DNA of 64,000 nucleotides, taken from Candidatus Doudnabacteria bacterium. Lineage in GTDB: Bacteria; Patescibacteriota; Doudnabacteria; UBA920. This document shows, in pieces, positions 3,832 through 53,708 of this stretch (position 1 is the first letter of the stretch; each line of letters starts with the position of its first letter). Under the pieces are notes generated by a model. The model searched no databases, was not told where the DNA came from, and worked only from the letters and a program-made list of their open reading frames with translations. A program made the translations under genes and the position numbers. The stretch is from contig JACRDK010000004.1 in assembly GCA_016218585.1 (NCBI GenBank), positions 85,347 to 149,346 on the forward strand, in the 5' to 3' direction.

Positions 3832-5109
3832 TCATTTTATCAGAAACTGGCCAAAAATTGTAGCCACAACTGCCACGGCAATAAATACCGCCGAACCTCT
3901 TAAAAACCACTTGGCAAAACCTTTAGAAATATAAGCTTCTCCCATAATTTCCGGATTTTCAGAAAAACGTATAAGAAAATAAAACAGCACCGGCAATATA
4001 GCGCCGTTTAAATAATTTGCGGCTAAGGTAAGGCCAAACAGGTTAATACTCGGAAACAAAGCAATAAACAAACCTAAAACAATTTGCAAAATAAAGAAAG
4101 TATAAAACACCCGGCCCTTTCCAAAGCTGGCATTTAAGGTTCTTTCGTACCCGAATAGCTCAGTAAAAACATAAGCGGTGGCCAATGGCACAACCGTGAG
4201 GCCTAATAAAGAAGCGGCGAAAAGTCCGGTAGCAAACAAAATGTAAGAAAAATTCCCAGCAAGAGGCTTAATTGCCATAGCAGCAGTTTGCGCATCGGAA
4301 ATAATTGTGTGGTTGGCAAACAAGGTATAGGTTACGGCAATCGCTATCATCCAGGAAAAAATATTGGTTAAGATTGAACCAAAATAAACCTCTGCCCGCT
4401 CTTCTTTTAGTTGTTCCGGCTTTATGCCTTTGTCGGCCACAAAACTGTTTATAAAAAACTGCCCCCAAGCTGTAACCGTAGTTCCCAAAACCGCAATTAA
4501 AGCAAACCAGTAATGAGGATCTCCTATAAAGTTGCGTTCCGGCATAACCAAGCTTTGCTTTAATGCCTGCCCCCAATCGGGCTTGGCCAATACCGCCGAA
4601 ATAATATAAGTTGCGTAAAATAAAATAGTTATAAAAAAGATTCTTTGCAGATTTTTGTAGTTTAAAAAAACAACTGCCAAAATTAAGGCCAGACATACTA
4701 AAACTAACAGCCCCTGCCAGTGCAGCCAGGCAATCCACCACGGCAAATTAAACAACTGGACCGCCGACTTTAACCCGGTAACGTCCTGCAATATTACGCT
4801 CTGATTAGCAACAAAATAAACCAAAAATAAAACCACGGAAACTCTAACGCCATAGTTCTCTCTAATTAAATCGCCAAGGCCCTTGCCGGTGACAATTGCA
4901 ATGCGGGCGCCGATTTCCTGGGTAACCGCCAGTAATAAAGTGGTTAAAATAACAAAATACTGGGAACTCATCCCGTACATTGAGGCCGCTACGGAATATG
5001 TAGCCACTCCAGAGGCGTCATTGTCAGCCATGGCCGTAATTAATCCGGGACCCAAAACTGCCAGGAAAATTAGAAGCCTGGGTTTATTTTTTTGCCAAAA
5101 ATTTTTCAT
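3832..5109 (-). CDS. mntH: NRAMP family divalent metal (Mn2+/Fe2+) transporter
   Basis: N-terminal GPGLITAMADNDASGVATYSVAASMYG motif typical of NRAMP; polytopic membrane protein. Confidence 0.75.
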   Translation of the reverse strand: MKNFWQKNKPRLLIFLAVLGPGLITAMADNDASGVATYSVAASMYGMSSQYFVILTTLLLAVTQEIGARIAIVTGKGLGDLIRENYGVRVSVVLFLVYFVANQSVILQDVTGLKSAVQLFNLPWWIAWLHWQGLLVLVCLALILAVVFLNYKNLQRIFFITILFYATYIISAVLAKPDWGQALKQSLVMPERNFIGDPHYWFALIAVLGTTVTAWGQFFINSFVADKGIKPEQLKEERAEVYFGSILTNIFSWMIAIAVTYTLFANHTIISDAQTAAMAIKPLAGNFSYILFATGLFAASLLGLTVVPLATAYVFTELFGYERTLNASFGKGRVFYTFFILQIVLGLFIALFPSINLFGLTLAANYLNGAILPVLFYFLIRFSENPEIMGEAYISKGFAKWFLRGSAVFIAVAVVATIFGQFLIK

Positions 5110-15995: not shown

Positions 15996-16143
15996 GATAT
16001 TGACTACCAGATGTTTTTAGTGTATAATTTTAACACAATAAATGTTTGACACAGCAAACATTTAAGTAGGCTCTTACAAACCTGTGTAAGAGTTTTTTGT
16101 TCCCCCTTGTAACTTTCAACTTTATAACTTGAAACTTACTCAT

Positions 16144-36438: not shown

Positions 36439-37266
36439 ATGTCAATTTCTAACGGGGTGAATGACCCAATTATTTGTTTTGGCCAACAACCCTGCGGTTT
36501 TTTCCCCAAACGCTACTTAGTGGGAAAAATTAATGCTGCCCGGGCTTTGCAAAAAGACATCGGCGGCAAGATAGTCTTTTTTTATCATGATTCAGATGCC
36601 GACTATAGGGAAACAATTACCGTAATGAAAGATCTGCAAACAGATGCGGAGGTCCGTTTAAATTTTATCCAGGAAAACAAACTGCAAAAAAAATTCTCGC
36701 CGCTTTACTTAAAAAGGATTCCGGCCGGATGGAAAGAAGAAATCTTAAAACAACTGCCCCGCTTTTTACCGCCAGCTCCACCTTATGAGGTTAACGGCAA
36801 ACCGGCAGACAGCCTAAAAGATATTTTTGAGCGAGTAAACGAAAAAACGGTAGCAGATTTTTGCCTGGAGATGTATAGAAAAATGCATTTGCTGGATGGC
36901 ATGGAAATAGTTCGCTCATCGGACAAAGATTTTAGGCTCGCCACCCCCGACATAAAGGGTGAATATTTTGCCGATCTCCCCTACCAGGGAGAAATTGTCC
37001 GCGCCAAGATTGAAAACAACAAAGCGGCGCTGCATGAAGGCGGCGGCAAATACACTTACTTTGATTTGCCGGAGAAAATTGAAAAGTGGCAAATCAACCC
37101 GGGAAAAGACGAAAGGTTTGCCTGGATGAATTCGGTTATTCATTGCACTCACTACATTGCCGGCAACTCGGAATACGAATATATTAAGCGTGAGCAATTC
37201 CCGGAAGTAAAATTTATGAAGCGTGAACAAATTGACCAGCCGGAAATGGCCTGGCTATCTAACTAA
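36439..37266 (+). CDS. Short BshC-like protein (bacillithiol cysteine-adding enzyme family, N-terminal Rossmann-like core only)
   Basis: ICFGQQPCGFFPKRYLVGKINAARAL aligns by eye to the BshC GGQQAGLLTGPLYTIHK motif; KIVFFYHDSDADYRE aligns to the PIFWVAGEDHDLDE block; 275 aa against about 540 for BshC. Confidence 0.45.
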   Translation: MSISNGVNDPIICFGQQPCGFFPKRYLVGKINAARALQKDIGGKIVFFYHDSDADYRETITVMKDLQTDAEVRLNFIQENKLQKKFSPLYLKRIPAGWKEEILKQLPRFLPPAPPYEVNGKPADSLKDIFERVNEKTVADFCLEMYRKMHLLDGMEIVRSSDKDFRLATPDIKGEYFADLPYQGEIVRAKIENNKAALHEGGGKYTYFDLPEKIEKWQINPGKDERFAWMNSVIHCTHYIAGNSEYEYIKREQFPEVKFMKREQIDQPEMAWLSN

Positions 37267-37280
37267 TTAATACCCTATTA

Positions 37281-38015
37281 ATGAAAACCACTATGTCCGC
37301 CAAAGGCGGATCCGCCTTTGGCGGAAGAATACTTGCAATTGGTGCCCACCCGGACGACTTGGAATTTGGCTGCGGCAGTTTGCTGGCCAAAGAAGCCTCT
37401 GCGGGCTCGCAAATAAAACTTTTAGTTCTGTCTAAAGGAGAGGCTGGAACCGCCGGCACGCCCGAAAGCCGCGCCGAAGAATCCCGGGCAGCCGCCAAAT
37501 TAATTGGCGCGGAAATTGAATTTCTGGAAATGGGCGGCGACTGTCATATAAAAAATACAGCCGAGAATGCTTTTGTTATTGCCAAGTACATTCGCGAATT
37601 TAAACCCGATGTCATTTTAGCGCCGCACACGGACGAGAACCAACACCCGGACCACGCGGAAGCCGGAAAAATGGCCCGCGATGCCGCCCGTTTTGCGCGC
37701 TATGGGGGTTTGGCCGAATTAAAAGGCTTAGCTACCCATAAAATTACCGCGCTCTATTATTACCCTGTTACTCAGGATTTTGCCGCTCCGGTTGATTTGG
37801 TGGTTGATACCACCGAAGTTTATGATACCTGGGTAAAAATGATAAATTGCCATAATACCCAGCTGCAAAATAAAGATTATGAGAGCCTGGTTACCGCCCG
37901 CGCCAAGGCGCTTGGCGTAGCCATTGGCACTAAGTCCGCACAAGGGTTATGGAAAAATGACCCTATCAGGCTAAATAATTTATCCGATCTTAACCTGTCA
38001 TCCAGAAATTATTAG
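37281..38015 (+). CDS. PIG-L/LmbE family N-acetylglucosaminyl deacetylase (BshB/MshB-like)
   Basis: ILAIGAHPDDLEFGCGSLLAK, HTDENQHPDH zinc-binding motifs. Confidence 0.8.
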   Translation: MKTTMSAKGGSAFGGRILAIGAHPDDLEFGCGSLLAKEASAGSQIKLLVLSKGEAGTAGTPESRAEESRAAAKLIGAEIEFLEMGGDCHIKNTAENAFVIAKYIREFKPDVILAPHTDENQHPDHAEAGKMARDAARFARYGGLAELKGLATHKITALYYYPVTQDFAAPVDLVVDTTEVYDTWVKMINCHNTQLQNKDYESLVTARAKALGVAIGTKSAQGLWKNDPIRLNNLSDLNLSSRNY

Positions 38016-38069
38016 AAAGAATCGGTATTATCCGTATCATTAGTATTAATCCCTATATCGGCATCATAT

Positions 38070-39200
38070 ATGAAAATTGGAATTGTCTGATATCCTTCCG
38101 TTGGTGGCAGCGGCATTGTGGCAACAAACTTAGGGCTAGAACTGGCGCTCCTGGGGCATCAGGTTCATTTTATTTCTTACGAATCGCCTTTTCGTTTGGA
38201 GAAAAAACATAAAAATATTTTTTTCCACAAAGTTCAAATTAACGAATACAGCCTGTTTAAATATCCGGACTACACCCTGCCGCTGGCCGTTGCCATTGAA
38301 GAAGTGCAAAAAAGATACGGGCTGGACGTAGTGCATGTGCATTACGCCGTGCCGCACGCCACCGCGGCGCTACTGGCTAAAAGAATTATGAGGCAAAATG
38401 GAATTCAACCGCCTAAAATAATTACCACTTTGCATGGAACCGACATTACCCTGCTGGCCAAAGATCCTGCTCTTTTTGAAATAATTAAATATTCGGTTGA
38501 AAGAAGCAACGGCGTAACTGCGGTATCACAAAATTTAAAAAATGATACAATAAAATTTTTAAAAACCGAAAAAGATATTGAGGTTATTTACAATTTTTAT
38601 TCTCCTCCGGCGCCAAAAAAAACCCACAACGCCATGCGCCGAGAACTTAAAATAAAAGACAGCGATGTTTTGGCTATTCATTTGTCTAATGTTCGTCCGG
38701 TAAAAAGAATTCCTGATTTGTTGAAAGTGGCGGCAAAAATGAAAACACAAAAAAACTTTAAACTGTTAATTTTAAGCGGCGGCGATTTTAAACCGTTTAA
38801 ACCGCTAGTTAAAAAACTTAAACTTGGCAAACAACTTATTGTTAAAGAAAATGTTAAAGATATTGAAAACTATTTAAATGCTGCCGACTTAGGGCTTTAC
38901 ACATCGGAAACAGAAAGTTTTGGCATGGGTATTTTGGAAACAATGAGTTATGAAAATCCCATTGTCAGCACTAATGTTGGCGGCGTGCCGGAAGTAATGG
39001 AAGAAGGAAAAAGCGGATTTTTGCTGGCGCTGGGCGATGTTTCCGGAATGGCAAACAAGGTAAAACTTTTGGTGAATAATGAAAATTTAAGAAAACAAAT
39101 GGGACAACACGCCAAAAAAATCGCCTGCGAAAAATTCTGCTCCAAAGTAGTCGTCCCCCAGTATTTGGAATACTACAAAAAAATAATAGAAGAAAAGTAG
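38070..39200 (+). CDS. GT4 glycosyltransferase, BshA-like (N-acetyl-alpha-D-glucosaminyl L-malate synthase family), interrupted by an in-frame TGA at 38088-38090; the ORF track starts at GTG 38118
   Basis: Own translation from ATG 38070: [34 protein letters not shown] matches the BshA N-terminus [22 protein letters not shown] with TGA at the conserved Cys; C-terminal GT4 motifs (E..G....E....G.P.V). Confidence 0.7.
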
Positions 39201-39224
39201 ACAACCCTGATATTAAAACTATAA

Positions 39225-39250
39225 AAACCCCCTTAAAGAAGGGGGTTTTA
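39225..39250 (+). terminator. Rho-independent terminator after the GT4 gene
   Basis: AAAAACCCCCTTAAAGAAGGGGGTTTTATT. Confidence 0.65.
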
Positions 39251-39253
39251 TTA

Positions 39254-39282
39254 TTGACAATTATGTCAATATATGATATAAT
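39254..39282 (+). promoter_or_regulatory. Perfect consensus sigma70 promoter with palindromic -35 region
   Basis: TTGACA (39254-39259), 17-nt spacer, TATAAT (39277-39282); -35 is part of the palindrome TTGACAATTATGTCAA; followed by RBS GGAGGA and ATG at 39313. Confidence 0.6.
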
Positions 39283-39309
39283 AATTACCTACTTCTGAGG
39301 AGGAGTATT

Positions 39310-39612
39310 GTGATGAAGGCCATCATTTTAGTATTTTTTTCGCTCTCCCTGCAGTGTACAGTAGGGCAGGAACCCGCCAAACCGGCACCACCGAGCGGTG
39401 TGACTGCTTCGCAGGGTGCAAAGCCGGCACCGGAGAAGAAGACCGGCAACGAACCGCTCGAGGCCTTGAGCCACGAAGAGGGATGTCGACGGGCAAGGTA
39501 TTTCTTCTACCGACCCGATCGATACCTCCAGCTCACCCGCATGAGCGGAAACGAAAACACGGTGCAGAACATGCTTCTGCACCAGATGACGGCAAACGGT
39601 TGCGACTGGTAG
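39310..39612 (+). CDS. Small secreted protein (100 aa), compositionally GC-rich relative to the genome
   Basis: Signal peptide MMKAIILVFFSLSLQCTVG; Pro/Ala-rich linker; two Cys (EEGC...ANGCDW); preceded by consensus promoter and strong RBS, followed by a terminator; chosen over the antisense ORF 39328..39648. Confidence 0.5.
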   Translation: MMKAIILVFFSLSLQCTVGQEPAKPAPPSGVTASQGAKPAPEKKTGNEPLEALSHEEGCRRARYFFYRPDRYLQLTRMSGNENTVQNMLLHQMTANGCDW

Positions 39613-39638
39613 AACCGGTCGCAGCCAACAACACAAAA

Positions 39639-39678
39639 AACGACGCAAGGGACCCTAAAGGCACCCTGCGTCGTTTTC
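39639..39678 (+). terminator. Rho-independent terminator
   Basis: ACGACGCAAGGGACCCTAAAGGCACCCTGCGTCGTTTTCATTT. Confidence 0.65.
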
Positions 39679-39685
39679 ATTTAAC

Positions 39686-40357
39686 TTATTTTTTCCACTC
39701 TACAATTTTCCCCATTTTAATTTCTATTTTATCCGCGGGGCGCAGATTTTTTATTTGCAGCTTATTTAAAATTTTATAATGTTTTATTTTATCCAGCTTT
39801 TGCGGTATTGCAAAAAGCTGCTCTGTGCTAGTTCGCCAGTTTATTGTTTCCCTTCCCTCTCTCTCTGAGGCAGAGGGATTAAGGGTGAGGGGGTGCTTGT
39901 CAAAAAAACTTAAATCAAAAATTTCCGAATATTCGCGCAATGTTTTTTGCCCGGTGTTTAAAAAATATTCATGGAAGTAAGACATAACCAATTCCCGCAA
40001 AGTTTTATAAACCGGCTCGCGAAAACGCAGTACGCCGTGATTAGTTTTACTTATGGCGCCAAAACAGCCAAATTTTTTATAAATTGCAACTACATGGTCA
40101 TCATCCCCGGGCTTGACCGAACGAAGATCAACCACAAGCGGCCTTGCCCCATGAAATTCCAAAATCGCCACAGCCAAGAGCGCGCCTTCCATACAATGTG
40201 CGGTTTTATGTTTTATAACCTGGCGCGGGGAATAACACGTCTCCCCGCTTTTCTCAAAGTTAAACTTTAACGAATTTAAAAAGCCCTGAATTTTTTGCGG
40301 CGAATTCAGTTTTTTAAAAAGTTTTATTTCCGCTTTTGTATACAATCCATTCTCCAT
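39686..40357 (-). CDS. Transglutaminase-like (Cys-His-Asp) domain protein, putative cysteine protease
   Basis: CMEGALLAVAILEFHGARPLVV...DDDHVVAIYK fits the transglutaminase-core pattern C.E.A...G.PAR.V...H.W.E.Y. Confidence 0.45.
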   Translation of the reverse strand: MENGLYTKAEIKLFKKLNSPQKIQGFLNSLKFNFEKSGETCYSPRQVIKHKTAHCMEGALLAVAILEFHGARPLVVDLRSVKPGDDDHVVAIYKKFGCFGAISKTNHGVLRFREPVYKTLRELVMSYFHEYFLNTGQKTLREYSEIFDLSFFDKHPLTLNPSASEREGRETINWRTSTEQLFAIPQKLDKIKHYKILNKLQIKNLRPADKIEIKMGKIVEWKK

Positions 40358-40392
40358 AAAAACATTCTGGTGTTCTGCAGAATATGAGAATA

Positions 40393-41295
40393 TTATTTTT
40401 TTATTGCGTGGCCGCCAAACTGCTTGCGCATAAGCGCCACAATTTTGTTGGAAAATTTATTTTGATTGGCCGGATCTTCCGACTCGCTGCGGACTTTTAA
40501 GCTGTCTTCTATTACCCGAACATCCACGCCCAATTCGTGGCCGGCGTTAACTGTCCATTCCCCTTCGCCGCTAGCTTTTATATAGCCTTTGGTTCCGGCA
40601 ATATCTTCCCCGTCAAAAATATTATAAACCAAATCTATGAGCCAGCTGCGCACTACGCTGCCCTGCTGGTAAACTTTAGTAACCTGCTTCAAATCCAAAT
40701 TAAAATCGCTGGCTTGCATTACCGCATAGCCTTCGCCAATGGCTTCCATCATTCCGTATTCAATGCCATTATGCACCATTTTTACAAAATGTCCGGCTCC
40801 GTTTTTCCCCATAAGCCCGTAATTTTCCCCGGAAGATAAAACTTTAAAAATAGGTTCTACCACGTGCCATTGTTCTTTTGGTCCGCCAACCATAAGCGCA
40901 AAGCCGTTCTCTTCGCCCCAAACGCCCCCGCTGGTGCCGCAGTCGTAAAATACCACGCCTTTGGCACTTAGCTCCGCGGCTCTCTTTATAGATTCTTTAT
41001 ATAAGCTGTTACCGCCGTCTATAACAATGTCCCCCGCGCGCAAGTGCGGCCCGATTTGCTTTTCAATAAATTCAGCGACTATTTCATGGGGCAACATTAT
41101 CCAAAAAATCCTGGGGCTTTGCGCCATGGCGCCAACAAGCTCGTCAACTTTTTCAAAAGTTTTAACTCCGGCTTTTGCGGCTTCCTCGCGCGGCTCCGGC
41201 GATCGATTCCAGGCCAATACCTCAAAATTATTTTTTTGTAATCTACGGGCAATTTGTATACCCATTTTTCCTAAACCAAAAATTGCAATTTTCAT
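40393..41295 (-). CDS. gnd: 6-phosphogluconate dehydrogenase, short (~300 aa, YqeC/GntZ-type) form
   Basis: MKIAIFGLGKMGIQIARRL Rossmann motif; 6PGD C-terminal domain. Confidence 0.8.
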   Translation of the reverse strand: MKIAIFGLGKMGIQIARRLQKNNFEVLAWNRSPEPREEAAKAGVKTFEKVDELVGAMAQSPRIFWIMLPHEIVAEFIEKQIGPHLRAGDIVIDGGNSLYKESIKRAAELSAKGVVFYDCGTSGGVWGEENGFALMVGGPKEQWHVVEPIFKVLSSGENYGLMGKNGAGHFVKMVHNGIEYGMMEAIGEGYAVMQASDFNLDLKQVTKVYQQGSVVRSWLIDLVYNIFDGEDIAGTKGYIKASGEGEWTVNAGHELGVDVRVIEDSLKVRSESEDPANQNKFSNKIVALMRKQFGGHAIKK

Positions 41296-41304
41296 AAATG
41301 TATA

Positions 41305-41314
41305 GACCGCGGAT
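41305..41314. repeat. Left inverted repeat (GACCGCGGAT) flanking the GxxExxY gene; CGCGGAT occurs twice on this flank
   Basis: Perfect reverse complement of ATCCGCGGTC at 41775-41784; ATCCGCG occurs 3 times on the right flank. Confidence 0.55.
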
Positions 41315-41331
41315 GCGCTGATAAACGCAGA

Positions 41332-41733
41332 TTACGCGGATTTTGTTTTTTGATTAATTATTCGCTTTATTAAAACACTTTTTCTAGTAAATATTGCTAG
41401 TAATCCTAATTCCAAACCGTTTGTTTTTAAATAAGTCATTACTTGATCAAAATATTTTTTGTGGAATTCCTCCGCAACCTTCAACTCAACAACTATGTTA
41501 ATTTTTTCTTCTTTAAATTTAACTAAAAAATCAATAAAGAACTTGGAAATTATTTTATCATCATATTTTAAATTGCAGTACAACTCTCTATCAAAAACCA
41601 AACCTAATTTTTCCAATTCACTCACAAACCCACGCTGATATTCTTTTTCCCGATAACCATAACCGAGCCTGTTATAAACATTATATAACGCTCCGATAAT
41701 CATTTTGGTTTGGTTCTGATATAAAAGTTGCAT
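41332..41733 (-). CDS. GxxExxY family protein (PD-(D/E)xK-fold, TIGR04256-like)
   Basis: IIGALYNVYNRLGYGYREKEYQRGFVSELEKLGL...ADFLV...IVVELK. Confidence 0.8.
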   Translation of the reverse strand: MQLLYQNQTKMIIGALYNVYNRLGYGYREKEYQRGFVSELEKLGLVFDRELYCNLKYDDKIISKFFIDFLVKFKEEKINIVVELKVAEEFHKKYFDQVMTYLKTNGLELGLLAIFTRKSVLIKRIINQKTKSA

Positions 41734-41753
41734 ATTTGCAGTTTTTATCCGCG

Positions 41754-42545
41754 CTATCCTGCCTGCATCCGCGTATCCGCGGTCTTTCTGACCTCAATAC
41801 ACATAAACAGCGGAATTTCCTTGCGGGCTTTGTCTTCCGCCAATTTTCTCGCGCCCTTGTCGCTGGTTTTATGGGAAATCCATTCTTCCAAGCGGCTTAC
41901 TACAAGTCCCGATTTATAAAAAGCTTTAAAATAAACCTGCAGCGGATGGTGAAAAGAATAAGTGAATTTTTTATTCCTCATTTCTTTTACTCCTTGGGTC
42001 ATATCCACGGCCTGGGTAATTTCCGACATATAGCCGTCTATTCTGCGGTACTGAACTTTTTGCTTTTCGTCATAATCCCAATTCGAAGCTCCGGGGACGC
42101 GAAAGGTAGGATGATTTAAAACCAGCACCGCCCTCCCCCCGGGTTTTAGCACCCGGGACATTTCGCCAATGGCCGCCGGCAAATTTTTCATATTTTGCAA
42201 AGCCAAGATGCAAATAGCTGCATCGAAGCGGTTATCAGCAATGCCGTTTAATTTCTCCGCCGACAAAACCAAATAACTTTCGTTCTTGCCGGATTGTGTT
42301 TTTGCCAAAGAAATTAATTCAGCGCCAATATCCACCCCCAAAACTTTAGCTCCAGCCTTTGCCAGTTCGCGCGAAAAATAACCTTGGCCGCAGCCAATAT
42401 CAATTATGTTTTCGCCAGGACTTATATTCAGCAGCCTTAGCAAATTTGGCTTTATTACTTTTTCCTGATAGGTATCTTCCCCTTCTTCTAGTAATTGGTT
42501 ATACCATCCGGCTACTTTACCCCAGGAAGTATTTGAATTGACCAT
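41754..42545 (-). CDS. Class I SAM-dependent methyltransferase (Methyltransf_11-like)
   Basis: IIDIGCGQGYFSRELAKAGAKVLGVDI motif I; LKPGGRAVLV. Confidence 0.8.
   Translation of the reverse strand: MVNSNTSWGKVAGWYNQLLEEGEDTYQEKVIKPNLLRLLNISPGENIIDIGCGQGYFSRELAKAGAKVLGVDIGAELISLAKTQSGKNESYLVLSAEKLNGIADNRFDAAICILALQNMKNLPAAIGEMSRVLKPGGRAVLVLNHPTFRVPGASNWDYDEKQKVQYRRIDGYMSEITQAVDMTQGVKEMRNKKFTYSFHHPLQVYFKAFYKSGLVVSRLEEWISHKTSDKGARKLAEDKARKEIPLFMCIEVRKTADTRMQAG
41775..41784. repeat. Right inverted repeat (ATCCGCGGTC) flanking the GxxExxY gene
   Basis: See left repeat; overlaps the last codons of the downstream methyltransferase ORF. Confidence 0.55.
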
Positions 42546-42681
42546 AATTTAAAAATAAATAAAATTGTATAAATGATATAATTGCCCAAAATTGCGCAAG
42601 ATTGTCCAGAATTGACCAAAAATTAAGTTGCAGAGGTTTAATTTTGTGCAATCTTATTTAATTCTGGGCAATTTTGGGCAA

Positions 42682-44160
42682 TTACTTTGTCCGCCACTCT
42701 CTTAAATCTTTTTTTATAAATTCATCAGCTTCTTTTGGTCCCGCGCTTTTTTGCTTATAGCTAAATACCGGCAAGTTTTTAAACTCAGGATTTTCCGTAA
42801 TGCTGTCTATAAATTTCCAGGAAGATTCTATTTCATCGCTGCGAATAAACAAGCGCTGGTCGCCTTCTATAAAGTCCAACAGCAACCGCTCATACGCCCC
42901 GGGCAGTTCGGTCATAAATGCCTGCTTGTAGCCAAAGCCGTAGTCGCCTTGGTGAATATCTACGCCAAAACCGGGAACTTTGTTGTTGATTTGCAAATGT
43001 ACCGATTCGTCCGGTTGAATGCGAAAAGTTAAAACATTCGCCGTGCAGTTGCGAAAAATACAGCGCGCCGGTTCTTTAAAATGCACCGTAACTTCCGCAA
43101 CTTTTTTATGCAGGGCTTTTCCAGTGCGCAAATAAAACGGCACACCCTGCCAGCGCGGCGTATTAATAAAAACTTTTAGCGCGGCAAAAGTTTCTGTTTG
43201 ACTGTCGGCCTTAACTTCTTTTTTGTATCCCGCATACTGCCCTTTAATAACAGACTGCCTTAACTCCCCTGCTGGCAGCTGCAAAGCTTTTAAAATTTTT
43301 AGCTTCTCGTTGCGAATATCTTCGGTGGTTAAATTATATGGCTCGTTCATGGTAATTAAAGACAGCATTTGCAAAATATGGTTTTGCACAAAATCTTTAA
43401 TCGCTCCGGTCTGGTCGTAATATTCAGCGCGCTTGGCTGTAGTGTCATTCTCCAAAACGCTAATTTCCACATGGTCAATATTTTTGTTATTCCAAAGCGG
43501 CTCAAAAATGCCGTTAGCAAAGCGGACCACCATTAAATTTTGCACTGTTTCCTTGCCTAAATAATGGTCTATGCGGTAAATTTGTTCTTCTTCAAAAAAC
43601 TTCTTTAAAAGCTTATTCAAAGCACTGGCTGACTTATAATTAAAACCAAACGGCTTTTCCACCAAAACTCGAACTTTCCTCTCATGGGCTTTGCAGGACA
43701 TAAGCAGGCCGGAATTTTTTAAAATGTGCGCGATGCCGGAAAAATACTGCGGGCTGGTTGCAAAGTAATACAAGCGATTATAGCAAACGTGCTTGTTTGG
43801 CTGGTCGTGGTCGGATAAAAGCTTTGCCAAACCGGTAAAAGAAGCGACGTCATCAAAATTTCCCTGATAATAAGTTAAGCGCTTTAAAAAAGACTGTTTA
43901 ACCTTTGTCGGCAGTTTTTTTAGCACAGTTGATTTTTTTAAAACAAAATCAAAATAAGATTTTGCGTTTAACTCTTTACGGCCAACGCAAACCAGCCTAA
44001 AACTCTTAGGCAGCATCCCATGCTCTTCCATGCGCAACAAAGCCGGCAATAAATAATCGGCCGAAAGGTCTCCGGTCGCGCCAAAAATTGTTAAAATTGT
44101 CGGCGCTATTTGTTTGCCCGACAAACGTTTTTGAGTATCTTCTACTAAGCTTTTTTTCAT
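42682..44160 (-). CDS. zwf: Glucose-6-phosphate 1-dehydrogenase
   Basis: GATGDLSADYLLPAL NADP site, EKPFG, RIDHYLGKE active-site motif. Confidence 0.9.
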   Translation of the reverse strand: MKKSLVEDTQKRLSGKQIAPTILTIFGATGDLSADYLLPALLRMEEHGMLPKSFRLVCVGRKELNAKSYFDFVLKKSTVLKKLPTKVKQSFLKRLTYYQGNFDDVASFTGLAKLLSDHDQPNKHVCYNRLYYFATSPQYFSGIAHILKNSGLLMSCKAHERKVRVLVEKPFGFNYKSASALNKLLKKFFEEEQIYRIDHYLGKETVQNLMVVRFANGIFEPLWNNKNIDHVEISVLENDTTAKRAEYYDQTGAIKDFVQNHILQMLSLITMNEPYNLTTEDIRNEKLKILKALQLPAGELRQSVIKGQYAGYKKEVKADSQTETFAALKVFINTPRWQGVPFYLRTGKALHKKVAEVTVHFKEPARCIFRNCTANVLTFRIQPDESVHLQINNKVPGFGVDIHQGDYGFGYKQAFMTELPGAYERLLLDFIEGDQRLFIRSDEIESSWKFIDSITENPEFKNLPVFSYKQKSAGPKEADEFIKKDLREWRTK

Positions 44161-51134: not shown

Positions 51135-51530
51135 TTATCTGATGCCGCCGCTGAACATATTGGCCATTAGCTCGTCCCGATTAGGCCCGCCGAGCCCCGT
51201 TCTGCGAGCAGAAGCAGAACCGGCAGTGCATGGTTGAGATGGCGAAACACTCGCAGTGACAAGCGAGAAATCAACCTCGTCGGGCGAACAAAAAAAATAA
51301 AAGACCAGCTGCTGCGGAAGCATCCACGCATGTCCGTCTTCTATCATTTTGTGATAGAACAGCCAAAGATGATTTATGATTGAAGTCTTTGTCTGCTCAG
51401 TCATGTCTTCAAAACCATCCGTACGATACCATTGCCGAAACAACTCCTCACCAATTTCTAACTGACGATGTTTTGGGCAGTTTGGTTGAGCCGCCTCAAC
51501 CAATAGATCATAAACTTCCTTTTGGGTCAT
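51135..51530 (-). CDS. Hypothetical small protein B (131 aa) of a tandem GC-rich cassette
   Basis: ORF preceded on the minus strand by promoter-like TTTTTTTTGGTATGGTAA and RBS AGAAGGAGGGG; codon usage atypical (CGT, CAG, CTG-rich); C-terminal 40 aa low complexity, possibly read-through. Confidence 0.4.
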   Translation of the reverse strand: MTQKEVYDLLVEAAQPNCPKHRQLEIGEELFRQWYRTDGFEDMTEQTKTSIINHLWLFYHKMIEDGHAWMLPQQLVFYFFCSPDEVDFSLVTASVSPSQPCTAGSASARRTGLGGPNRDELMANMFSGGIR

Positions 51531-51600
51531 AAACCCCTCCTTCTGGATTCACAGACGATTTACCATACCAAAAAAAATAAAAATTGTCTATAAAAACAAT

Positions 51601-51625
51601 GGGCGTCGACATGCTGTCGACGCCC
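51601..51625 (-). terminator. Hairpin terminator separating the two tandem small genes
   Basis: GGGCGTCGACATGCTGTCGACGCCC. Confidence 0.6.
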
Positions 51626-51641
51626 ATTCTGATACCTAACG

Positions 51642-51950
51642 TTATCCGCCACCTACAAGGGAACCCCATTTAATAGGGCTGTTGCTGCCTGGCTTTGTCT
51701 GGGTTTGGATGAATTCATCGAGCCTGGATGTCGGCATCGCTTTGGTCAGATGGACCATACCGATAGTGCCGATTTGGCCGGCCAAGTCACTCTTGGCCTT
51801 TGCAGCGTAGTTGTCGAGGCTGGCAGTAGCACAGACGTGCCTGCCAAAAAGCCTGGCCTCTAGACCGAATTTTGCCAGCAGCGCCTTTGCTGTCTCAAAG
51901 AGGACGCCCTCTCTAAGAACAATGACTATAAGTACAGATCGTTCCTGCAT
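51642..51950 (-). CDS. Hypothetical small protein A (102 aa) of a tandem GC-rich cassette
   Basis: Same duplicated leader (TTTTTTTTGGTATGGTAAGG...GAGAAGGGGGG) upstream on the minus strand; MQERSVLIVIVLREGVLFETAKALLAKFGLEA...; family not recognised. Confidence 0.4.
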   Translation of the reverse strand: MQERSVLIVIVLREGVLFETAKALLAKFGLEARLFGRHVCATASLDNYAAKAKSDLAGQIGTIGMVHLTKAMPTSRLDEFIQTQTKPGSNSPIKWGSLVGGG

Positions 51951-51999
51951 AAGTCCCCCCTTCTCAATCCAACAGAGACCTTACCATACCAAAAAAAAT

Positions 52000-52027
52000 A
52001 AAGGCTGTCCAGAAAAGGACAGTCTTT
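52000..52027 (-). terminator. Hairpin terminator upstream of the cassette (downstream of holA)
   Basis: AAAGGCTGTCCAGAAAAGGACAGTCTTT; second hairpin CCCTCCCCTTATGAGGGGAGGG at 52081-52102. Confidence 0.55.
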
Positions 52028-52103
52028 AAATATTGCCATACGTTTTCTCCAAGAGATTAGCACTTAACAGCCTCTCCCTACCCTCCCCTTATGAGGGGAG
52101 GGG

Positions 52104-53228: not shown

Positions 53229-53432
53229 CGTCGTTCGCGAACGACGTGGCCCACCATGCACCATTCGCTCGTTTTCAGACGACTAGTTCATCATAGAATA
53301 ATGACATCACTAATTGATGTCATTTTTTATTAGGCGCCCAATGGTGCTCCCGGCAACCTGCCCGTCCTGTCTACCGATAGGCAGGCGGCAGGCAGGGATT
53401 CGTCTTCTGGTATACGATTCAGATTCTAAATT

Positions 53433-53508
53433 TCTGGTGCACCCGGCAAGATTCGAACTTGCTACCTTCCCGATGTACATCGGGACGCTCCCCGCCCGCA
53501 CGACTCGT
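53433..53508 (-). ncRNA. tRNA-like 3' element (hairpin plus T-arm plus 7-nt acceptor strand plus ACCA) lacking a canonical 5' half
   Basis: Reverse complement ends ...CCCGATGTACATCGGGAAGGTA GCAAG TTCGAAT CTTGC CGGGTGC A CCA; matching 5' acceptor strand GCACCCG lies 136 nt upstream at 53638-53644, on the other side of tRNA-Arg. Confidence 0.35.
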
Positions 53509-53583
53509 CTGGTGACCTCGGCAGGAATCGAACCTACATCACTGGTTTCGAAGACCAGTGCTCTATCCATTGAGCTACGAGGC
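53509..53583 (-). tRNA. tRNA-Arg (anticodon TCG) with encoded CCA
   Basis: Reverse complement GGCCTCGTAGCTCAATGGATAGAGCACTGGTCTTCGAAACCAGTGATGTAGGTTCGATTCCTGCCGAGGTCACCA folds as a cloverleaf. Confidence 0.8.
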
Positions 53584-53708
53584 CGTCAGGCGAGTCGAGC
53601 GGATATCCAAATGCCTGTCCGCCTCGGGCGGAAGCTTACGGGTGCATTTATCCCAATAATTATAGCTTAAGCCGAAAGTTTGCGCTACATAGGCCCAATT
53701 ACAAAAAT

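Follow-up and report, generated by a model that had tools for sequence, protein, structure and literature searches.

The stretch of DNA analyzed here (64 kb, hereafter the window) carries between bshA and its convergent neighbor a short segment that looks out of place, namely a small GC-rich ORF with its own promoter and flanking hairpins. Is this segment a recently acquired foreign insertion encoding a secreted toxin, bacteriocin, or signaling peptide, as an earlier note on the same DNA had suggested, or does it belong to the locus in some other way? The segment and its two neighbors comprise the following features.

38118–39200, plus strand: bshA (N-acetylglucosaminyl-malate synthase), the left anchor; TIGR03999, 395.7 bits against a cutoff of 273.7
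39224–39249, no strand: T1, bidirectional terminator hairpin AAAACCCCCTT-AAAG-AAGGGGGTTTT with an 11-bp stem, −16.5 kcal/mol; 5′ boundary of the cassette
39252–39271, no strand: perfect 20-bp palindrome TATTGACA-ATTA-TGTCAATA with 8-nt arms, overlapping the −35 box
39254–39282, plus strand: sigma70-type promoter, with −35 TTGACA (39254–39259), a 17-nt spacer, extended −10 TG (39274–39275), and −10 TATAAT (39277–39282)
39297–39305, plus strand: Shine-Dalgarno sequence GAGGAGGAG, read from the sequence
39313 (ATG) or 39310 (GTG) to the TAG at 39612, plus strand: the ORF, read from the sequence and the ORF list
39313–39366, plus strand: signal peptide, aa 1–18 (MKAIILVFFSLSLQCTVG), predicted signal peptidase I (SPase I) cleavage between G18 and Q19
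39367–39471, plus strand: Pro/Ala/Lys-rich arm, aa 19–53, with two AKPAP motifs
39472–39612, plus strand: C-terminal domain, aa 54–99, and stop codon; three predicted helices, conserved C58 and C97
39598–39626, plus strand: stem-loop of 12–13 bp over the stop codon, followed by the CAACAACAC-A-rich linker
39637–39677, no strand: T2, bidirectional terminator, −22.4 kcal/mol on the plus and −28.1 kcal/mol on the minus strand, z about −6; 3′ boundary of the cassette
39686–40357, minus strand: gene for a 223-aa protein conserved in CPR bacteria and DPANN archaea, the right anchor

The product of the ORF is identical to the NCBI entry "hypothetical protein HY918_00885" of Candidatus Doudnabacteria bacterium, and a second member of the family (P0002, 71% identity) is encoded on the ENA contig L001. 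The layout of L001 is that of the window: after the 3′ end of bshA come a terminator, a promoter identical to that of the window, and the ORF, and a second terminator separates the ORF from the convergent neighbor gene. Since only the ATG is present in this orthologue and the NCBI annotation gives 99 aa, the start was assigned to position 39313; thus, the ORF and stop codon of the earlier note stand, whereas its start at 39310 and its length of 100 aa do not. Between the two copies, substitutions are distributed over the three codon positions as 21/19/37, dS is 0.81, and dN/dS is 0.26 overall. Given this coding-type pattern, the gene, hereafter type A, is a genuine coding gene under purifying selection with a syntenic orthologue in L001. 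The alternative-frame ORFs of the window are broken in L001 and are not conserved.

No homologues outside the locus were found among approximately 15 billion proteins, where the type A family has two members only, and a profile scan of 1.84 billion representative proteins recovered the family itself and nothing else. Neither were matches obtained in genome, metagenome, and viral contigs, phages, and plasmids, nor in Pfam, NCBIfam, PHROGs, and PDB; no fold neighbor was found. Taken by itself, the type A gene is an ordinary lineage-restricted orphan encoding a small secreted protein.

The description of the ORF as GC-rich and foreign to its host in codon usage was borne out by windowed GC and codon recalculation. 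The GC content of the ORF is 0.567, and no other 303-nt segment of the 64 kb (mean 0.406, sd 0.058) is as GC-rich as the one starting at 39364 (GC 0.594); apart from this region, GC rises above 0.55 only in a tRNA cluster at 53315–53663. The GC3 value of the ORF is 0.67, compared to 0.41 ± 0.06 in the 50 long ORFs of the window, none of whose 1250 100-codon windows reaches 0.67, and its CAI-like index is 0.51 versus 0.705 ± 0.024. When the protein was recoded with host codon usage, GC was 0.489 ± 0.017, and the observed 0.569 was reached in none of 10,000 simulations. Therefore, the GC excess divides about evenly, with approximately one-half due to amino acid composition (Pro/Ala/Gly) and one-half to codon choice.

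The regulatory elements of type A were found much as the earlier note had described them. The promoter matches the TTGACA-17-TATAAT consensus at 12 of 12 positions, is the sole such site in the window (mean of 0.075 in shuffled sequences), and is 100% identical in L001, where the GGAGGA core of the strong Shine-Dalgarno sequence is also present. The hairpin terminators reported on both sides of the ORF are both bidirectional, and T2 is common to the cassette and the convergent neighbor gene. The T1 and promoter block is identical to L001 at 78 of 82 positions and T2 at 41 of 43, compared to 223 of 300 for the ORF, which argues that the regulatory elements of type A are constrained. Elsewhere in the window, a near-consensus TTGACT-17-TATAAT precedes tRNA-His at 16000. 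The palindrome that overlaps the −35 box was confirmed and extends further than the earlier note had stated. It does not recur elsewhere in the window at up to two mismatches, is found among 81 loci only in L001, and is absent from the promoters of the other cargo types described below; it is possibly an operator specific to type A.

The same stretch could be read as mainly a structured or dual-function RNA in which the ORF is secondary. Relative to dinucleotide shuffles, both whole transcripts are much more stably folded (z of −6.3 and −8.3, against −0.6 ± 1.1 for controls), the coding sequences alone reach −2.4 and −5.6 relative to the same controls, and the pairing of the stop-codon hairpin survives three substitutions, all in its non-coding arm (U-A/U-G). 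However, the fold signal comes mostly from the 3′ hairpins (stop-codon hairpin and terminator), and the substitutions in the ORF are of the coding type, as given above. Further, 20% of column shuffles attain the count of five compensatory pairs seen in the coding sequence, its consensus energy is borderline (6%), and the structure conservation index is 0.5. In Rfam, sub-threshold hits were to terminator hairpins only, and only three tRNAs of the whole window pass the gathering threshold. An RNA gene is thus very improbable, and we read the 3′ hairpins as mRNA-stabilizing elements.

The organization of the locus was compared across related genomes using the neighbor protein as an anchor, with loci taken from 80 species-representative genomes and several metagenome contigs. 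This anchor is widespread: its relatives occupy at least 568 loci in species-representative genomes and comprise 1209 proteins at E ≤ 1e-60, with weak annotation matches to transglutaminase-like and vasohibin proteins. A total of 17 related loci, most of them on short metagenomic contigs, were compared. The two anchors are convergent in 14 of these 17 loci, with anchor identities of 57–100% across the 14; the contigs of the other three (L001, L083, and L089) end before a usable bshA match. The slot between the anchors takes the following forms.

Empty slot (L002, L004, L007, L009, L011, L018, L084): convergent anchors 19–73 nt apart, with a single hairpin
Type A slot: the window, L001, and L089 (partial)
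Type B slot (L082, L083, L085): cargo of 142–143 aa
Type C slot (L086, L090): cargo of 191–197 aa, counted from a TTG start
Other fillers (L005, L087, L088): non-cargo sequence

The view that the window gene is an insertion is supported by the seven relatives in which bshA and the neighbor gene are directly adjacent; the bshA gene nearest to that of the window (88% over 103 aa) belongs to one of them, the empty-site locus L084. All occupied slots share several features: the cargo has the same orientation, every cargo has an N-terminal signal peptide, exactly one promoter matching at least 10 of 12 positions with a 17-nt spacing directly follows the upstream terminator, and a 3′ terminator is present as well. 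The cargo proteins themselves are different. Types A and B have no similarity (BLASTP E = 30). The predicted model of type B, which has no Pfam match, is a FABP/lipocalin-like (calycin-type) barrel, at a pLDDT of 64 and an identity of at most 16%. Type C ends in a PEP-CTERM-like tail, which covers the full motif length and scores below the cutoffs of both families (PF07589, 18.4 bits versus 20.7; TIGR02595, 13.9 versus 16). In these loci, which include close as well as distant relatives, a single junction holds at least three unrelated genes for predicted secreted proteins, or nothing. Given the seven empty relatives and the alternative cargo, the window gene is one allele of a strain-variable slot.

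An artificial origin of the segment, either by chimeric assembly of the metagenome-derived genome or by contamination with a synthetic or vector cassette, might be suspected from its "textbook" consensus elements and the sharp GC jump at its boundaries. Against this, the order of genes and the junctions recur in the independent ENA assembly at 80% nucleotide identity, with divergence of the coding type, and the Logan contig L089 matches window positions 39448–43345 at 100% identity. Types B and C are each present in two or three independent assemblies, and plasmid and phage records contain no match. An artefact is hardly credible, and the chimera that the earlier note had wished to exclude is excluded by the recurring junctions.

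Despite their unrelated proteins, types A and B have regulatory frames that can be aligned. The T1 stem CCCCCTT/AAGGGGG is also present in the type B loci L082 and L083, with the one-base variant CCCCTTT/AAGGGG in L085, and is followed in both types by TTTTA(T/A)TATTGAC(A/T) and by similar −10 regions; the hairpins of the empty sites are unrelated in sequence to T1. On the 3′ side, both types share the succession of small hairpin, CAACAA linker, and T2 terminator, in the last of which a compensatory G-C to A-T change distinguishes them. An extra 5′ leader with a mini-ORF occurs in type B only. By these alignments the A and B frames appear homologous, though part of the likeness could have arisen as promoters and terminators converged on a consensus. 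The signal peptides of the two types are also alike (MK.[IV][IL]FV...GQ.P), which is weak evidence.

The rates of divergence differ between the cargo and its surroundings. In the two close pairs with measured flanks (types A and C), cargo dN is two to four times that of the flanks: 0.21 versus 0.075 for type A, and 0.20 versus 0.11 and 0.05 for type C. Type B is the opposite case, with dN 0.23 and dS 1.35 between L082 and L085, where the right flank has a dN of 0.28 and a dS of 2.08, and bshA a dN of 0.39 with saturated dS. This lower divergence relative to both flanks suggests that the type B cassette has spread laterally between lineages. Between bshA and the right flank, the correlation of identities is r = 0.56, with pairwise differences from −0.10 to +0.17 that are noisy at these divergences, and the trees of the two flanks are incongruent, in a small sample at high divergences. 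These observations are suggestive of recombination through the flanks and do not amount to proof of it. Neither an integrase, a transposase, an attC-like site, nor boundary repeats were seen among the ORFs of the slot and the repeats of 39150–39760; beyond the terminator stems, there are no direct or inverted repeats at the cassette boundaries.

The comparison of cargo types also bears on the origin of the atypical composition. One explanation would be a single transfer from a GC-richer donor, for example the host of the epibiont or a phage, with GC and codon bias persisting as an un-ameliorated relic. It accounts for the insertion relative to the seven empty-site relatives and for GC and codon usage far beyond the host range; the PEP-CTERM-like tail of type C, a motif typical of non-CPR Gram-negative bacteria, fits it as well, as does the slight net loss of GC in type B, where polarized synonymous changes are 10 S→W and 5 W→S (a small sample). 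On the other hand, all seven cargo genes of types A, B, and C have GC3 values of 0.65–0.69, versus 0.31–0.59 in the flanking genes. The two type A copies agree in GC3 (0.67) even at a dS of 0.81, and so do the type B copies at a dS of 1.35, where the flanks of one genome have values of 0.31–0.34. Under a two-state model of neutral decay, types A and B would require an ancestral GC3 above 1. The equal GC3 of diverged copies, together with this impossible ancestral value, disfavors a recent transfer: the cassette is older than the split at dS 0.8. Neither the approximately 15 billion proteins nor the scanned DNA collections contained a donor or other homologue, so that the earlier reading of horizontal transfer gains no donor outside the slot. 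Moreover, the frame of promoter and terminators resembles host DNA in being AT-rich, and a promoter of nearly the same sequence precedes tRNA-His. A one-off acquisition is a possible explanation, to which we assign a minor share of the probability. The GC3 excess points either to maintenance, through selection or biased repair, or to imports that recur from an unseen reservoir; slow amelioration of type B is possible in view of its few polarized changes. Such a persistent excess, found in three unrelated cargo families of AT-rich genomes, offers a test of transfer versus selection as the cause of atypical composition.

Most of these observations are brought together if positions 39224–39677 are the type A allele of a strain-variable, self-contained cassette in a hot spot that a clade of Doudnabacteria has between the 223-aa gene and bshA, which we consider the probable explanation. 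Cells would take up DNA and, by homologous recombination through the conserved flanks, gain such a cassette, lose it, or exchange it for another, as in the case of the minimal mobile elements (MMEs) of Neisseria. The type A gene would be strongly transcribed as a monocistron whose mRNA is stabilized by the 3′ hairpins, and its product would be exported by the Sec system and cleaved after G18 to give a protein of 81 aa. The mature protein, a flexible Pro/Ala/Lys arm with a small helical Cys-containing head, would then act outside the cell.

The features of the protein are in line with this scheme. The signal peptide noted earlier is cleavable-looking and, by inspection and conservation pattern, appears to have the properties of a Sec/SPase I substrate: an MK start, a hydrophobic core of 11–15 residues, and T and G at positions −3 and −1. 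Its parts are MK, AIILVFFSLSL, and QCTVG/QEP in the window, and MK, NVIFVIFFSTLLAAA, and G/QEP in L001 (a slash marks the cleavage site). The signal peptide is only 42% identical to that of the orthologue, conservation begins exactly at G18/Q19, and dN/dS switches at the same site from approximately 1 in the signal region to 0.10 in the arm and 0.17 in the C-terminal domain. A bacterial lipoprotein was considered and rejected: no lipobox of the form [LVI][ASTVI][GAS]C is present in the product, where the signal-peptide Cys lies in LSLQC with Q at −1, and this Cys is absent from P0002.

What had been described as a Pro/Ala-rich linker corresponds to the arm with its two AKPAP motifs and an internal direct repeat, GCCAAACCGGCACC/GCAAAGCCGGCACC. 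The arm is predicted to be disordered (AF2 pLDDT mostly below 50), and 31 of its residues (aa 20–50) are 90% identical between the orthologues. Helices are predicted in the C-terminal domain at residues 54–65, 68–78, and 81–94 with pLDDT of 75–81, in an AF2 model that was built on two sequences and has a mean pLDDT of 61.5; the C-terminus MTANGCDW is invariant in both orthologues. With regard to the proposed 2-Cys C-terminal module, C58 and C97 are indeed conserved, although the product has three Cys in all. A C58–C97 disulfide is putative, and a simple three-helix bundle would not require the two residues to lie near each other.

A Sec-dependent bacteriocin, secreted toxin, or quorum-sensing peptide directed at competitors or kin would also be small, of the exported type, strongly expressed, and strain-variable, with conserved Cys residues, and the faster evolution of the cargo relative to its neighbors (dN as given above) is a further point in its favor. 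However, the gene is monocistronic between two terminators, and no immunity, transporter, modification, sensor, or regulator gene is present in or next to the cassette. In particular, a class II bacteriocin immunity gene was not found at the locus, whose flanks, bshA and the CPR/DPANN gene, are adjacent in the empty-site genomes, and a toxin-antitoxin pair is not seen either, with one gene and alternative-frame ORFs that are lost in L001. The product contains neither a YGNGV nor a double-glycine motif and matches no family in the collections listed above, while the alternative occupants of the slot, a calycin-type barrel and a PEP-CTERM-like protein, are not bacteriocin-like. The bacteriocin, toxin, addiction, or signaling role advanced in the earlier note thus finds neither a partner gene nor a family match, and we regard it as improbable. 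By analogy with the other occupants of the slot, type A most likely serves as a strain-specific factor, outside the cell or on its surface, by which the bacterium interacts with a host or the environment, since these alternatives are of the lipid-binding and surface-anchored types; a bacteriocin or a toxin-antitoxin component is less likely than such a factor.

We also considered a stronger version of the hot-spot explanation, according to which the junction is a "plug-and-play" site. Its frame (terminator, promoter, possibly signal peptide, 3′ hairpin, linker, and terminator) would be kept while exoprotein modules are swapped and spread laterally, and a GC3 of approximately 0.67, in genomes with values of 0.31–0.59, would be maintained by selection or biased gene conversion. 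This version is rather doubtful; if it were true, episymbiotic CPR bacteria would vary their host-facing secretome without mobility genes.

The value of these results lies in the locus rather than in the type A gene alone. CPR bacteria (Patescibacteria) are regarded as epibionts, whose means of recognizing and exploiting their hosts are still little understood. They are also generally thought unable to make their own lipids, which provides a context for a cargo with a lipid-binding-type barrel. A hot spot that swaps exported and putatively strongly expressed proteins is a place to seek CPR factors of host interaction and niche specificity, and its conserved anchors make the slot easy to survey across metagenomes.

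Among known systems, small Sec-dependent secreted proteins and class II bacteriocins of Gram-positive bacteria, e.g., enterocin P, resemble type A by description in their N-terminal Sec-type signal peptide, mature length below 100 aa, conserved Cys, and strong stand-alone promoter. Type A differs from class II bacteriocins in its lack of an adjacent immunity gene and of the pediocin box or any family motif, in its long conserved Pro/Ala/Lys arm, and in having neither sequence nor structural homology to them. The calycin superfamily (FABP, lipocalin, and nitrobindin barrels) is a possible parallel for the type B cargo only, at the low identity and model confidence given above, and says nothing directly about type A. 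Integron gene cassettes, like the occupants of the slot, carry one gene each and differ from strain to strain at a chromosomal site that stays the same. This candidate was rejected, because the slot cassettes bring their own terminators and promoter (12/12 in type A) and occur singly and not in an array, with no attC-like site among the repeats of 39150–39760 and no integrase gene in or next to the slot.

The closest parallel is provided by the Neisseria MMEs, as defined in work of 2007 quoted in PMC3082526. In the terms of that quoted definition, both systems have two conserved flanking genes that enclose different, unrelated whole-gene cassettes or none, and both are devoid of an integrase, a transposase, and terminal repeats; the lower divergence of one cargo type (B) relative to its flanks is a further similarity. 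The slot is unlike the Neisseria elements in that it resides in an uncultivated CPR host, every cargo is predicted to be exported and has its own near-consensus promoter and terminators, and a homologous frame is present in two cargo types along with the anomalous GC3 of approximately 0.67. The locus is an MME-like hot spot and a new variation on that theme, with exclusively exported cargo, each furnished with its own promoter and terminators and with anomalous GC3.

The cassettes that relatives carry in the slot between bshA and the convergent gene for the 223-aa neighbour protein differ in architecture. In all three type B loci (L082, L083, and L085), whose cargo is unrelated to the GC-rich secreted-protein ORF of the window (type A), the gene is preceded by a 5' leader of approximately 90 nt that carries a mini-ORF of 9–14 codons:

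L082 ~4186-4215, with equivalent positions in L083 and L085, minus strand: leader mini-ORF, translated as MQIILFCAV or MRIILFCATCNTTF, each ending at a stop.

This mini-ORF is preceded by a strong Shine-Dalgarno sequence (AAGGAGG) and is enclosed in an 8-bp hairpin (AGACAGCA/TGCTGTCT), an arrangement that could reflect leader-peptide regulation. The type C cassettes (L086 and L090), with another unrelated cargo, include a second small ORF of 25–35 aa with a hydrophobic segment, located 3' of the main gene. The slot of L005 contains a different filler, 471 nt long and of normal GC content, which encodes a 31-aa hydrophobic ORF (MSPAEKNLHMIFDPILNGIGHILPFFIPLFG). Within the type A ORF itself, at window position 39448, ends a contig of an independent assembly with the same sequence (L089, Logan SRR12113407); heterogeneity at the slot, or a change in coverage there, could have caused this break.

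The gene on the far side of the slot belongs to a family common across CPR bacteria and DPANN archaea: 1209 proteins match at E <= 1e-60, and species-representative genomes hold no fewer than 568 loci.

39686-40357, minus strand: gene for the 223-aa neighbour protein, with relatives in loci L002-L081.
39846-39896, inside this gene: 17-aa in-frame insertion KHPLTLNPSASEREGRE, relative to the orthologue in L001, an ENA contig with a type A orthologue.

The search against Pfam yielded no assignment over cutoff for this protein, the only matches being weak ones to transglutaminase-like (DUF553) and vasohibin families. The DNA of the insertion is rich in CT/GA and contains the inverted repeat CCCTTCCCTCTCTCTCTGAGGCAGAGGGATTAAGGGTGAGGGGG.

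On the other side of the slot, genes for bacillithiol biosynthesis lie within window positions 36439-39200 of this Doudnabacteria genome. The bshA product scores above the TIGR03999 cutoff, and a bshB1-like deacetylase falls below its own (151.6 bits vs. 182.5).

36439-37266: upstream 275-aa ORF, N-terminus GQQPCGFFPKRY...

No family match was obtained for this ORF, the N-terminus of which appears similar to that of BshC.

Two further features lie near tRNA genes.

16000-16028, plus strand: near-consensus promoter TTGACT-17-TATAAT (11/12).
53336-53500: GC-rich stretch adjoining tRNA-Arg (53510-53584, minus strand).

The promoter lies approximately 115 nt upstream of tRNA-His (16145), showing that sigma70-consensus promoters are native to this genome, where they serve highly expressed genes. 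The GC-rich stretch received no call from ARAGORN or Rfam; it may be a tRNA that is unusual or carries an intron, or a different kind of RNA.

Finally, two small ORFs lie in the region 51135-52063, within the 1-kb bin that has the highest GC content in the window (0.48).

51642-51950, minus strand: 102-aa ORF.
51135-51530, minus strand: 131-aa ORF.

A 45-nt direct repeat occurs once upstream of each ORF (51972-52016 and 51551-51595; 80% identity). It includes the promoter-like element TTTTGGTATGGTAA, and a Shine-Dalgarno sequence comes after it. A perfect 14-bp hairpin (51598-51628) separates the two ORFs. This pair is another case of a single regulatory frame with differing cargo.
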